The position numbers were made by a program, and so were the translations under genes. DNA of 59,876 bases, filler included, from Porpidia crustulata (Eukaryota): the NCBI GenBank assembly GCA_964255105.1. It is 4 parts of 4 records of this genome, joined end to end, with 100 filler letters (N's around TTAATTAATTAA, not from the genome) between each part and the next. Parts side by side here need not be neighbours in the genome. Positions count along the whole stretch, not along the records: positions 1 to 14,923 come from CAXUWE010000351.1; 3 more parts are not named here. The stretch is one strand, 5' to 3'. Below, in pieces: positions 1 to 2,308 of the stretch; positions within the stretch are counted from its first letter, which is position 1; every line of letters begins with the position of its first letter. Under the pieces are notes generated by a model, which saw nothing but the letters and a program-made list of their open reading frames with translations, was not told where the DNA came from and searched no databases.

Positions 1-662
1 GGATAGCTGGGGAGCGGGAGCCGGGGTTTGGATTGGAATGGGCGGGCTCTTGTTTGTATCTTTTGATTTTGGTTGCGTGAGAAGGTGATGAGATTGGAGG
101 TGTTGGTGGACTTAGTATGGCGTATATGGTTGTGCTCACAGGACCTAACGAGATAAAAGCACGAAGAGGACGTTATGGGGAAGCGCGGAATAACCATTGG
201 AGCAAAAGACAGAGCATGGAGGGGACGCAACTGTCATGGAAGTTTGAATGGGGGCGAAAGGTTGGGAAACTAAACCTAGCGGTGACGACAGATTCATGTG
301 GGATTTGATGGTGATTTCGGTCAAGGAGGTGGTGCATTGAGAATGCGTGGCCTTCATAATTTTCGGAGATTCGTGGTCGGCAGTGCAAGAGTAATCGGTA
401 TGCTCTGTTTAAGCATTGTCGATAATGTAGAGAAAGCCAGTCACAACAATGTTTGCGGGCTAGGAATTTGAATGATTTGAATTATGCACTTCATGACGCC
501 GAATCGCGCATTTATGAAATGTCTCATTATCAAATATCTGGATATTGTCGTCTTGTGTTGACCAGACCTTCAGAGCGACTTTTGTGTTCTGCCACGATCT
601 ATAATTCGGTCAGCAACCCATTGACATAGGTGCAATTGTCCAAGCAGAGTATGAGGGTGTTC

Positions 663-749
663 GGTATCAGTTCTCCAAGGCGAAATATGTGTTTCTTCAA
701 GGACTATGTCTCGGAAAGAACACAGCAAATATTTGGGTTCATCAGGTAA
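663..749 (-). ncRNA. Box C/D snoRNA, U55/SNORD55-like (LSU Cm in GGUCU-C-CAAGG) with a second guide to 5.8S (Am in GAAG-A-ACGCAGC)
   Basis: Box C TGATGA 744-739, D' CCGA 714-711, box D CTGA 670-667. D guide TTCGCCTTGGAGA (684-672) pairs with LSU UCUCCAAGGUGAA (one G-U). D' guide TTTGCTGTGTTCTT (729-716) pairs with 5.8S AAGAACGCAGCGAA (two G-U). Lies in intron 787-599. Confidence 0.85.
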
Positions 750-987
750 GGGCCAGAGAGAGAAGAGAAAAGGACAGTCTGACTCACCATGTTCGGTCTA
801 ATATTAATATGTGGTATATAAGTGCTTAACCTACTTTTTGGTCAAAGGATATTAGCTTGTATCCGAATCACAACTTCGTGTCCTGTGAGCAAAGAGAAAA
901 TAGCTAGCGCATCTAATAATCAGGCTTGGGGCCTCTCCGTCAGCGTAATGTATGTACATGAAAGGCGAAGAGAAGAGCATACCTCAT

Positions 988-1088
988 TAAATCAGAATTT
1001 TCAGTGTTTGTACGTTCACAACCAGACGATGCCCTCGTTACAAGGCGGTGTCCAGTTCAAACAGTGTGAATAGTGTTCATCATCTCAA
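988..1088 (-). ncRNA. Box C/D snoRNA guiding two neighbouring LSU uridines (yeast Um2724 and Um2729 equivalents)
   Basis: Box C ATGATGA 1083-1077, D' TTGA 1060-1057, box D CTGA 995-992. D' guide TATTCACACTG pairs with LSU CAGUGUGAAUA; D guide ACACTGAAAAT pairs with AUUUUCAGUGU. The D+5 rule gives the two known methylated U residues. Confidence 0.88.
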
Positions 1089-1535
1089 GACGGCTTGCAT
1101 GGTGGGTATTTGAAGGGGGACAGGTGGATGTAATACCTATCAGTGGTGTTGCCCAGGGTATGAATATCTGGGGGACTGTCAAAAGCGAATATTATCTAAA
1201 AAAGCATCTTTCAACCCAGTCAGCCAGTTTACCACTAGCTGTGTAATGCAGAATCAAATGCATATTCCAAAGCGTAGAGGATCAGCTGACGAGTTCTCAA
1301 CAAGCACTTCCATCCACATGGCATCGGCCGAGGTTTGTACGCCTGGCCTTGGTTGATGCCAGCGAAGGAGTGCGCAGTCTGTCCGCCCGTTCGTTCAAGA
1401 TTCTTCATGTAGGAATGGGCATTGAAAGAGGATCAGGGAAGGCTGGCAAGATTGAAGTTGTACCTAACAATGCAGTATCATATTAGCCATAGGTACTCTC
1501 GAAAGAGGGACGAACAGAGAACGTGGTGGGGGTTG

Positions 1536-1628
1536 TGTGTCAGACAAGGCTGAAACTGATAGAGACAGAATCGACATTAAATATTCGGATTGAGGAATGC
1601 CTTTCCGTGTCGTGTGGTCATCATGTAA
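1536..1628 (-). ncRNA. Box C/D snoRNA, snR41-like (18S Gm1126 equivalent)
   Basis: Box C ATGATGA 1624-1618, box D CTGA 1543-1540. A 13-nt D guide AGTTTCAGCCTTG is the exact complement of 18S CAAGGCUGAAACU. A second 11-nt complement, AGGCATTCCTC (1602-1592), to 18S GAGGAAUGCCU precedes a CCGA D' box. Confidence 0.88.
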
Positions 1629-1793
1629 AAGCGCACTTGCAATATGAAGAAGTTCTCCCGGCTCGTACCTTTTTAACCTCTCCGTTGCAACTGCCTCAGG
1701 TGAATCTAGACGGGAAACGTCAATTGTCTATAGCACAGATTTAGCTTGTGCCATCATAGCTTCATATCAATGACGCAAGAATAGCACAATCAA

Positions 1794-1878
1794 GAGATCA
1801 GAGTAATTCTAGAGTATGTTGTATCTCCTGCATGGTGCTATAGGAATTGGATTGTTCGTGAAAGAGCTCATCATCTCG
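1794..1878 (-). ncRNA. Box C/D snoRNA, U45-like (18S A equivalent to human Am159) with a second guide to LSU UUGGAUUGUUC
   Basis: Box C ATGATGA 1874-1868, box D CTGA 1801-1798, terminal stem GAGA/TCTC. D guide CTCTAGAATTAC pairs with 18S GUAAUUCUAGAG. Upstream GAACAATCCAA (1857-1847) pairs with the LSU A-loop region; its D' box is degenerate. Confidence 0.85.
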
Positions 1879-2308
1879 TAGACTACCGATCTATGCGTCA
1901 AATGCGACTTACCAGTGATATGTACTACTTGTCATGGAGTACTAATACCAGAATGCAAGTAATGAGAAGCAATTACAAAAGTGAGATTTGCGTTTCAGAT
2001 TTTGGACCTTTAGTATTGATTTAGTGTGATGCGCTAGTGATCGCCCGATAAGGCTGGAAGAACTGCGCAAGTTTGTGCAATAGACCGCGTAGCACACTGG
2101 CAGGACGACCACTTTGTCGAGAAAAATAAATTGACCTCATCCAACCTCTGAATCATTCAAGAGTGACGACGCAAATTATCTTTTGTCCGAGTAATGGGTT
2201 ATAGGACCCCCAGGCATTTGGACCCGTGCCCAACATTCAAACGCCAGGTATCGATTCCCTGCCCATTCGTCTAATCATATCCTATCTGGAGAGGCTGGCA
2301 CAGAGCTG

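Follow-up and report, generated by a model that had tools for sequence, protein, structure and literature searches.

A probable non-coding host gene for five box C/D snoRNAs in Porpidia crustulata, with the layout of Euascomycete cluster III

Results

Five box C/D snoRNAs in a seemingly intergenic interval

The window analysed here is the whole stretch of 59,876 nucleotides of Porpidia crustulata DNA, in which four parts are joined with filler letters between them. We found that positions 599-1912, on the minus strand, very probably form one non-coding snoRNA host gene, the form that the yeast snR41-snR70-snR51 cluster takes in filamentous ascomycetes ('Euascomycetes'). Observed in this locus are the boxes, the guides and how they pair with fungal rRNA, the membership of two units in known families and the layout of splice signals. 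On the minus strand the members follow one another as U45-like, snR41-like, snR70-like, snR51-like and U55-like, with one predicted intron each. This is the order of cluster III (U45, snR41, snR70, snR51 and U55, intronic and on a single strand); in the present locus the introns are predicted from splice signals. The cluster is real, functional-looking and already known, earlier publications having described its arrangement in moulds that include Aspergillus, Neurospora and their relatives. What is corrected is a gap in annotation, with no new biology: 1.3 kb that seem intergenic to ORF finders encode five rRNA-methylation guides, and 599-1912 are properly annotated as a conserved cluster III snoRNA host gene.

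Box C ATGATGA and box D CTGA occur exactly in the U45-like, snR41-like and snR51-like units (units A, B and C, respectively), CTGATGA and CTGA in the U55-like unit (unit D), and a variant ATGAAGA together with CTGA in the snR70-like unit, which gives all five the box C/D signature. An earlier note on this DNA had described four minus-strand box C/D units within 599-1912, and we located all of them, with the boxes, sizes, guides and flanking splice signals it gave. Its view of these units as box C/D methylation guides agrees with the boxes, with the anchored rRNA pairing and, for two units, with matches to Rfam. Its names U45-like, snR41-like and U55-like accord with those used by Luo et al. 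(2013) and with the target tables of N. crassa and A. fumigatus, as far as the available portions of those sources extend. The non-coding host gene that it inferred agrees with the literature, in which the host gene of this cluster in filamentous ascomycetes is intron-rich and without coding function. The four snoRNAs it counted are present, but a fifth, the snR70-like unit at 1408-1282, was overlooked. The flanking splice signals give predicted introns of 185, 205 and 189 nt, and one of 212 nt (1136-925) in the way the note drew it; the unit inside this third one continues past its first CTGA.

Between positions 389 and 2309 we found no minus-strand ORF of at least 60 amino acids, and a Pfam search with two plus-strand ORFs (822-1073 and 1523-1744) gave no match. 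A non-coding exon is predicted on the minus strand at 788-882, between introns III and C. On the splice-signal layout, the other predicted exons on this strand are 1669-1727, possibly 1137-1195, the sequence upstream of 1913 and the sequence downstream of 598. A minus-strand ORF at 2312-2800 matches Pfam CK_II_beta (E = 2.9e-36). The last exon with coding sequence has its end at 2312, and from the stop to the first 5' splice site, downstream at 1912, it is only about 400 nt; no promoter was identified between the two. The snoRNA introns might lie within the 3' untranslated part of this upstream same-strand casein kinase II beta gene, with no separate non-coding gene. We consider this unlikely. 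An mRNA with six introns in its 3' UTR, one of them nested, would be open to nonsense-mediated decay. Moreover, two studies (PMC3596301, PMC2780460), in their accessible text, treat such clusters as host genes in their own right, non-coding and of low coding potential, and Jochl et al. classed the A. fumigatus snoRNAs as intergenic (PMC2377427, in the part available).

Pairing of the guides with rRNA

We tested pairing on rDNA loci of other fungi, one of which (L034) contains every target site. The sites near the LSU 3' end are covered by only five loci, two or three of them fully paired for the LSU guides of the snR51-like unit, and none of the loci covering this region is Pezizomycotina-like. 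One rDNA piece (L014, from the same genome as L016) belongs to a divergent eukaryote, and its pairing is poor at U2729 and U2724; it was retained in the counts of fully paired loci. Viral contigs, scanned twice with rDNA primers, gave no match.

For each of nine box-anchored guides, the observed pairing was reached by 0 to 7 of 1000 shuffled guides when G-U pairs were limited. A laxer control with unlimited G-U pairs gave a much weaker result: on L034, as many as 28 of 300 shuffles did as well as the real guide. This control was judged too permissive and replaced by the limited version, with 1000 shuffles per guide. In a search of the whole window, Rfam matches had E values of 9.9e-10 for unit B and 9.1e-13 for unit D. 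Both the shuffles and the Rfam E values, on the order of 1e-9 to 1e-12, argue against the idea that the boxes and guides are chance motif matches in intergenic DNA that yields no stable RNA, as does a member order identical to that of snoRNAs cloned from A. fumigatus (in the part of that report available); we regard chance as a negligible prospect. The Rfam check proposed earlier succeeded in part: Afu_455 (unit B) and Afu_294 (unit D) score above the gathering threshold, but unit C falls below it and unit A has no family match beyond box C.

The observation that each box-D guide ends one base before CTGA holds in the sense that the Watson-Crick part stops there in all four units; next to CTGA, units A, B and C have a T that faces a G, and unit D has an A without a partner. 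The expectation that the fifth-base (D+5) rule points to modified sites likewise holds, both on the rDNA of other fungi and when compared with the published site tables of A. fumigatus and N. crassa.

The U45-like, snR41-like and U55-like units

The U45-like unit is contained in a predicted intron of 185 nt (intron A, 1728-1912, minus strand), with GTAAGT at 1912-1907, a branch-like GCTAAAT at 1745-1739 and CTATAG at 1733-1728; a 'U45-associated intron A' of Euascomycete cluster III is described in the available text of PMC3596301. The snoRNA itself spans 77 nt (1798-1874, minus strand), with box C ATGATGA at 1874-1868, a degenerate D' box CCTA at 1844-1841 and box D CTGA at 1801-1798. Its D guide (1814-1802) is directed at an A at about position 156 of 18S rRNA through 13 pairs, all of which form in 25 of the 26 rDNA loci covering the site. 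The D' guide (1857-1846) points to an LSU G that precedes UUGUU by four bases in GTTGGATTGTTC, with 12 pairs and full pairing in 5 of 5 loci; matching shuffles numbered 1 of 1000 for D and 4 of 1000 for D'. In Rfam, this unit matched no family beyond box C. Its counterpart in N. crassa is CD17, which has the same targets and duplex lengths (18S-Am154, 13/0, D; 26S-Gm2875, 12/0, D'). The distance between the two LSU targets in L034 is 188 nt, equal to 2875 minus 2687 in N. crassa numbering.

Intron I (205 nt, 1464-1668, minus strand) has GTACGA at 1668-1663, a branch-like GCTAATA at 1487-1481 and TGTTAG at 1469-1464. The GTACAA at 1463-1458 follows its end immediately (TGTTAG/GTACAA), so that introns I and II are juxtaposed and there is no exon between them. 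The snR41-like unit (1538-1628, minus strand) has box C ATGATGA at 1624-1618, D' CCGA at 1588-1585, a C'-like ATGTCGA at 1577-1571 and box D CTGA at 1543-1540, with 85 nt from box C to box D. It belongs to Rfam family RF01860, Afu_455 (71.7 bits against a gathering threshold of 48; model positions 1-92 of 92 aligned to 1628-1538). Its D guide (1557-1544) targets the 18S G of the fungal Gm1122 site with 14 pairs, fully paired in 36 of 38 loci, and none of 1000 shuffles did as well. The unit also has a conserved internal element at 1602-1592, whose spacing from the D' box is not canonical. Both Afu-455 (PMC2377427) and N. crassa CD9 (PMC2780460; 14/0, D) are assigned to 18S-Gm1122 in the available parts of these papers.

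At the other end of the cluster, a predicted intron of 189 nt (intron C, 599-787, minus strand; GTGAGT at 787-782, branch GCTGACC at 614-608, TTATAG at 604-599) contains the U55-like unit, and a 'U55-associated intron C' is named in the accessible text of PMC3596301. The unit (664-749, minus strand) has box C CTGATGA at 745-739, D' CCGA at 714-711, a C'-like TTGAAGA at 700-694 and box D CTGA at 670-667, the two outer boxes spanning 79 nt. It is a member of RF01506, Afu_294 (75.6 bits against 43; model positions 1-83 of 83, aligned to 749-664). Its D guide (684-672), one base from box D, targets the LSU C that corresponds to A. fumigatus Cm1851; the 13 pairs are complete in 9 of 10 loci and were matched by 0 of 1000 shuffles. 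The D' guide (729-715), directly before D', is directed at an A at about position 42-43 of 5.8S rRNA through 15 pairs, three of them G-U, all of which form in 74 of 75 loci (shuffles, 1/1000). The targets given for Afu-294 in the available part of PMC2377427 are 26S Cm1851 and 5.8S Am43.

A snR70-like unit between introns I and III

The earlier reader had assumed that 1465-1137 is a plain exon. We rejected this because a snR70-like unit is located there, between the snR41-like and snR51-like units and in the position it has in cluster III. The unit (1282-1408, minus strand) has the variant box C ATGAAGA at 1408-1402, D' CAGA at 1381-1378 and box D at 1285-1282. A short D' guide, ACGGGCGG (1390-1383), is followed by one base and then D' CAGA. 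Downstream there is an internal stem (GGCATC, 1360-1355; GATGCC, 1325-1320), whose loop contains the element GTACAAA (1340-1334), and the predicted fold of the unit leaves the loop unpaired.

The guide pairs 8 of 8 with 18S CCGCCCGT in 96 of 98 loci, although by itself it is not above chance, 158 of 1000 shuffles reaching the same pairing. Three bases upstream on the rRNA is TTTGTAC, with which the loop pairs at 7 of 7 positions in 91 of 92 loci. The unit gave no Rfam match at E values up to 10. Yeast snR70 has a short guide, a divergent D' box and a stem-loop with extra pairing that adjoins the target (PMC3116282, in the part available). All of these features are present in this candidate counterpart of snR70: a short D' guide for an 18S decoding-centre C, a divergent D', and a D'-C' stem with loop pairing adjacent to the target.

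The unit is contained in intron II (1196-1463, minus strand; putative 3' end), which is predicted from the weak GTACAA at 1463-1458 and from TTTTAG at 1201-1196 with the branch GCTGACT at 1224-1218. An alternative acceptor, GATAG at 1141-1137, would abut intron III, and only with this acceptor are introns II and III juxtaposed; judged by the signals, TTTTAG looks better and leaves a 59-nt exon at 1195-1137.

A snR51-like unit with a predicted nested intron

Intron III (883-1136, minus strand; putative 3' end) is predicted to run from the weak GTATTA at 1136-1131 to CTCACAG at 889-883, with a candidate branch GCTAGCT at 908-902 and an alternative acceptor TTATTAG at 919-913. It contains both the snR51-like unit and a nested intron. 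The unit (920-1083, minus strand) has box C ATGATGA at 1083-1077, D' TTGA at 1060-1057, a first CTGA at 995-992 (92 nt, counted from box C) and a distal box D at 923-920. Its D' guide (1072-1062) targets the LSU U of the yeast U2729 site with 11 pairs, fully paired, G-U included, in 2 of 5 loci and reached by none of 1000 shuffles. A second guide (1007-996), directly before the first CTGA, is directed at the LSU U five bases upstream (yeast U2724 site) with 12 pairs (3 of 5 loci, G-U included; shuffles, 7/1000).

A third guide, CTGATTTAATGAG (995-983), overlaps the first CTGA and is directed at the yeast A100 site of 18S rRNA, with 13 pairs that are complete, G-U included, in 21 of 26 loci. 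In genomic DNA no box D directly follows this guide, because a nested intron intervenes (intron B, 58 nt, 925-982, minus strand; GTATGC at 982-977, branch GCTGACG at 944-938, CCAAG at 929-925, with its AG at 926-925). Intron B separates the 18S guide from the distal box D at 923-920, and after the intron come a single C and then CTGA. When 982-925 were removed in silico, 14 anchored pairs to 18S were obtained, which none of 1000 shuffles reached, and only the exact excision of 982-925 sets the A equivalent to yeast A100 at the fifth pair from box D. A non-snoRNA intron B within snR51, between guide and box D, is described in the available text of PMC3596301.

The earlier description of this unit as a dual guide captured the two LSU guides but overlooked a third guide, for 18S-A100, as well as the nested intron and a second box D. 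More generally, snoRNA calling from genomic DNA alone can misread a unit in which a nested intron stands between guide and box D. Unit C does not reach the Rfam gathering thresholds (29.1 bits against 44 for RF01214, snR51; 24.1 against 55 for RF01177, snR67). Its Rfam alignments cover the 5' and 18S guides of snR51 and the 3' guide of snR67, in segments near-identical to the consensus. Judged from its sequence, the unit appears to be the functional and positional counterpart of snR51, though not a member by Rfam score. Its counterparts elsewhere are A. fumigatus Afu-277 and N. crassa CD6; the predicted targets of Afu-277 are a 26S U and 18S A97 (PMC2377427, in the part available).

It is possible, if doubtful on balance, that this gene gives two snoRNA forms from one locus, with three guides and two alternative box D elements, the choice being made by splicing of the nested 58-nt intron. 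Were the intron retained, the sole box D in reach would be the CTGA at 995-992, and an RNA of about 95-100 nt would guide methylation of two LSU uridines five bases apart; were it spliced, the distal box D at 923-920 would be joined and the 18S-A100 guide would become usable. Luo et al. (2013; PMC3596301) saw the nested intron and Canzler et al. (2018; PMC5824354) an extra D-box target in the snR51 family; the link between the two is drawn in neither paper, in the portions available.

Discussion

Proposed working of the cluster

The layout suggests five box C/D snoRNAs, each in its own spliceosomal intron, with the three central introns nearly or fully back to back. Excised introns would be debranched and then trimmed by exonucleases to box C/D cores protected as snoRNPs. 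In the snR51-like member an extra step is envisaged, in which removal of the nested 58-nt intron brings the 18S guide next to the distal box D. The snoRNAs would pair with pre-rRNA, and fibrillarin (Nop1) would methylate the ribose of the nucleotide opposite the fifth base of the guide, counted upstream from box D or D'. The predicted 18S sites are A at about 156, the G of the fungal Gm1122 site, the C of the yeast C1639 site and the A of the yeast A100 site. For the LSU, they are two U five bases apart (yeast U2724 and U2729), the C corresponding to A. fumigatus Cm1851 and a G near the A loop (N. crassa Gm2875); for 5.8S, an A at about 42-43. Splicing, expression and methylation are known from papers on related species, and we infer that they take place in P. 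crustulata as well. Box C/D methylation guides are stable RNAs of about 70-130 nt that associate with Nop1, Nop56, Nop58 and Snu13, and homologues of the present units have been cloned or detected in A. fumigatus and N. crassa.

In S. cerevisiae fashion, the snoRNAs could instead be freed from a polycistronic precursor by RNase III and exonuclease cuts without splicing, and the weakness of two of the predicted 5' splice sites (GTACAA of intron II and GTATTA of intron III) would fit such a route. Every unit, however, is framed by GT, branch and AG at typical spacing, the 18S guide of the snR51-like unit fits the fifth-base rule only after the exact removal of 982-925, and spliced ESTs are known for the cluster in related fungi (PMC3596301, in the part available). 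Release without splicing thus seems very unlikely, and we prefer release from introns.

Comparison with known clusters

The earlier note held that the combination of units does not match the yeast snR41-snR70-snR51 cluster. On the contrary, the locus is that cluster with U45 and U55 introns added, an arrangement published in 2013, and the A. fumigatus cluster Afu-455/Afu-277/Afu-294 had appeared in 2008 (PMC2377427), insofar as the available portions of these papers describe them.

According to the available text of Luo et al. (2013, PLoS One, PMC3596301), the cluster III snoRNAs of Euascomycetes are all intronic, introns associated with U45 and U55 have been inserted into the cluster, and its structure is backed by 42 spliced ESTs; the host transcript is characterised as spliced, non-coding and poorly conserved. 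The paper describes an 'intron-intron-intron' arrangement in which two interior exons have been lost in all Euascomycetes. Compared through that paper's text and legends, the members and their order are as in P. crustulata, and so are the single snoRNA in each predicted intron, the nesting of a further intron in snR51 and the lack of coding in the exons. The juxtaposition of the central introns is seen here as TAG/GTA at 1464/1463 and possibly at 1137/1136. Both interior exons are described as missing in Euascomycete cluster III, whereas here the better splice signals suggest a 59-nt exon at 1195-1137.

The A. fumigatus cluster on chromosome 1 comprises Afu-455 and Afu-277 as well as Afu-294, which were cloned as cDNAs and are conserved in A. 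nidulans and A. oryzae (PMC2377427, in the part available). The order of its snR41-like, snR51-like and Afu_294 members and their predicted targets equal those found here, and two of our units are members of the corresponding families (RF01860 and RF01506). It differs, as far as that source goes, in having three snoRNAs, called intergenic, with no U45-like or snR70-like member among those listed. The interval also contains Afu-336, an unclassified RNA of 130 nt; our guess is that it might be the snR70-like unit.

In N. crassa, cluster III contains CD17, CD9 and CD6 (Liu et al. 2009, PMC2780460), whose targets and duplex lengths are as in units A, B and C, and its host gene is UHG-like and non-coding. 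Guide lengths of 13, 12, 14, 11 and 12 pairs are those tabulated there for CD17, CD9, CD6 and CD49. CD6 (26S-Um2687, 11/0, D') is described as exon-encoded in the same paper. The guide for Um2682, the U five bases upstream, lies in CD49, on a snR54-type backbone, whereas here it lies in the snR51-like unit. According to Canzler et al. (2018, PMC5824354, in the part available), the snR51 family of Onygenales and some Dothideomycetes engages the snR67 D target through its D-box guide.

The S. cerevisiae snR41-snR70-snR51 polycistron and snR67 carry guides homologous to those of P. crustulata in Rfam alignments to snR41, snR51 and snR67. We take the yeast site numbers for these guides to be 18S G1126, 18S A100, 25S U2729 and 25S U2724. 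Unlike the present locus, the yeast cluster is without introns, nested or otherwise, and without U45 and U55 members, and the guide for U2724 is carried by snR67, a separate snoRNA.

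The minus-strand locus at 1912-599 is an already known, conserved snoRNA cluster, whose boxes, rRNA pairing and, for two units, family membership are established here; its splicing and expression in P. crustulata would follow by analogy with published data from relatives.

Box C/D units and family assignment

Read on the minus strand, all four box C/D units that the earlier note placed within 599-1912 are present, with canonical motifs: a U45-like unit (A; box C 1874-1868, box D 1801-1798), an snR41-like unit (B; box C 1624-1618, box D 1543-1540), an snR51-like unit (C; box C 1083-1077, first CTGA 995-992) and a U55-like unit (D; box C CTGATGA 745-739, box D 670-667). 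Boxes, guide pairing and two Rfam families bear out their identification as methylation-guide snoRNAs; as an inventory, however, the four units were incomplete, omitting an snR70-like unit and the continuation of unit C. Inspection of splice signals found a 5' GT site, a CTRAC-like branch and an AG around each unit of the four, giving introns of 185, 205, 212 and 189 nt that agree with the claimed sizes (212 being the third intron as drawn in that note).

The suggested Rfam check placed two units above gathering scores, B in Afu_455 (71.7 bits vs 48) and D in Afu_294 (75.6 bits vs 43), the only above-threshold matches across the 59.9-kb window. In a permissive scan unit B also matched snR41, and unit C both snR51 (29.1 bits) and snR67 (24.1 bits), all below threshold; for A the scan gave nothing past box C. 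On the minus strand at 450-336, 3' of the cluster in the presumed last exon or host-gene 3' region, a sub-threshold match to plant snoZ103 (18.9 bits vs a gathering score of 44; E 0.84), without a canonical box C, is probably due to chance.

Guide pairing with rRNA

Pairing was assessed on rDNA of other, mostly fungal, organisms: 13 contigs with the ITS1-F site from prokaryote assemblies, four further pieces of the same assemblies and 106 metagenome loci, mapped via Rfam (n = 123 orientable loci in total). The D guide of unit A (1814-1802) forms 13 pairs with 18S at about 152-164, complete in 25 of 26 covering loci, and its D' guide (1857-1846) forms 12 with LSU GTTGGATTGTTC (5/5). Unit B pairs with 18S over 14 positions (D guide 1557-1544; 36/38). 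In unit C the D' guide (1072-1062) forms 11 pairs with LSU (2/5) and a second guide (1007-996) forms 12, five bases upstream of the D' target (3/5); for the LSU 3' sites of units A and C coverage is thin, at five loci, one of them from a divergent eukaryote. Unit D pairs with LSU through 13 positions (D guide 684-672; 9/10) and with 5.8S through 15, three of them G-U (D' guide 729-715; 74/75). With G-U pairs capped at the observed number, 0-7 of 1000 shuffles matched the observed box-anchored pairing of the A-D guides; with unlimited G-U the control was much weaker, as many as 28 of 300 shuffles reaching that level on L034, where all target sites are covered. On L034 the LSU targets of the A and C D' guides lie 188 nt apart, which equals the N. 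crassa interval (2875 minus 2687).

Eukaryotic, mostly fungal, rDNA contigs with the ITS1-F primer site occur in thirteen assemblies or MAGs that are classified as bacterial, an apparent contamination (L001-L017); one of these loci, L014, has a group I intron within LSU (Rfam, 51.8 bits).

Unit B also contains an internal element, AGGCATTCCTC (1602-1592, minus strand), which the Rfam consensus for Afu_455 shows in upper case, its mark of conservation. All 11 nucleotides are complementary to 18S GAGGAATGCCT in 17 of 84 fungal loci, and all but one in 63 more. The element stops three bases before a D'-like CCGA, which puts the fifth-base rule one base off, and, counting from the 3' end, covers the yeast Gm1572 site, which we take to be guided by snR57. 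According to a figure legend (PMC3596301), A. fumigatus, N. fischeri and A. flavus have lost the snR57 intron of cluster II, so this element may have taken over the site.

A fifth, snR70-like unit

The interval 1463-1137, previously taken as an exon, contains a fifth box C/D unit on the minus strand, with a variant box C (ATGAAGA, 1408-1402), a guide ACGGGCGG (1390-1383) followed after one base by CAGA (1381-1378), a predicted stem GGCATC/GATGCC (1360-1355/1325-1320) and a box D (1285-1282). In 96 of 98 loci all eight guide bases are complementary to 18S CCGCCCGT. If CAGA serves as D', the fifth-base rule points to the first C following the G of this target, which corresponds to C1639 of yeast, the snR70-guided site. 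The predicted fold places GTACAAA (1340-1334) in the loop; in 91 of 92 loci this heptamer is complementary to TTTGTAC, an rRNA segment three bases upstream. For yeast snR70, PMC3116282 describes a guide that ranks among the shortest, a D' that diverges, and extra pairing beside the target by the loop of a stem located between D' and C'. Two results speak against the assignment: Rfam returned no match to this unit, even in the permissive scan, and 158 of 1000 shuffles equal the pairing of the guide alone. We nevertheless consider 1408-1282 a likely snR70 counterpart, with good confidence. Afu-336 of A. fumigatus, a 28-nt cDNA with a 130-nt northern band that Table 2 of PMC2377427 lists as a novel ncRNA of no given kind, maps to the cluster's intergenic interval there, and its size fits the unit's ~127 nt.

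The snR51-like unit and its predicted nested intron

Unit C had been ended at 995-992, but the CTGA there opens CTGATTTAATGAG (995-983), which pairs 13/13 with 18S CTCATTAAATCAG, perfectly in 19 of 26 loci and with one G-U in two more. This is the snR51 guide of the Rfam alignment, where the yeast box D lies directly behind it. Here a predicted intron follows on the minus strand (GTATGC 982-977, branch GCTGACG 944-938, AG 926-925), then a C and a distal box D (CTGA, 923-920). Removing 982-925 in silico gives 14 anchored pairs with 18S, matched by 0 of 1000 shuffles, and the fifth pair then falls on the A that is equivalent to A100. The guide before CTGA 995-992 agrees over 19 bases with the 3' end of the snR67 consensus in Rfam and pairs 12/12 from the first position, which argues that this CTGA may also function as a box D and suggests two possible forms of the snoRNA, depending on splicing of the nested intron. 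The Um2724/Um2729 dual guide proposed for this unit holds as pairing at two LSU sites; as a novelty it was anticipated by Canzler et al. (PMC5824354).

Probable host gene and predicted intron layout

On the minus strand, predicted 3' splice sites abut weak predicted 5' splice sites at 1464/1463 (TGTTAG/GTACAA) and 1137/1136 (GATAG/GTATTA), TAG/GTA junctions that, judged by their signals, are the signature of back-to-back introns whose exons were lost. Candidate 3' ends are 1196 (better branch) or 1137 (published back-to-back layout) for intron II, and 883 or 913 for intron III. On the same strand, 2312-2800 holds the final coding exon of a gene for the regulatory (beta) subunit of casein kinase II (Pfam PF01214, E 2.9e-36); it ends at 2312, leaving about 400 nt before the first snoRNA intron. 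A single RNA polymerase II transcript, probably separate from that gene, would start between 2300 and 1913 and end beyond 599; its introns would be spliced, the snoRNP-protected cores would outlast debranching and exonuclease trimming, and the snoRNPs would methylate nine predicted rRNA positions. The exons are probably discarded, since there is no minus-strand ORF of at least 60 aa between 389 and 2309.

Comparison with published clusters

The predicted target nucleotides are consistent with the tables for A. fumigatus (PMC2377427: Afu-455, 18S Gm1122; Afu-277, 26S Um2706 and 18S Am97; Afu-294, 26S Cm1851 and 5.8S Am43) and N. crassa (PMC2780460: CD17, 18S-Am154 [13/0, D; human U45A/C] and 26S-Gm2875 [12/0, D'; HBII-210]; CD9, 18S-Gm1122 [14/0]; CD6, 26S-Um2687 [11/0, D']; CD49, 26S-Um2682 [12/0, D]). 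For N. crassa clusters, Liu et al. 2009 report verified co-transcription and splicing and call the hosts UHG-like (PMC2780460).

The claimed novelty of the cluster does not stand, as it was published as conserved cluster III (snR41-snR70-snR51), surveyed across fungi by Luo et al. 2013 (PMC3596301). By that account, every snoRNA of the Euascomycete form is intronic, U45- and U55-associated introns (A and C) were gained, the two interior exons are absent, leaving an intron-intron-intron arrangement, and a non-snoRNA intron B separates the antisense element of snR51 from its box D; 42 ESTs document stepwise 5'-to-3' intron removal, and the spliced RNAs are without long ORFs. Counterparts of these snoRNAs, of introns A, B and C and of one lost interior exon occur in the same order at 1912-599, and the second interior exon would be absent too if intron II ends at 1137, so the view that this combination is unlike the snR41-70-51 cluster was mistaken: to the extent of the published text and legends, the locus and Euascomycete cluster III are alike in members and order, with splicing at the P. 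crustulata locus predicted from its signals.
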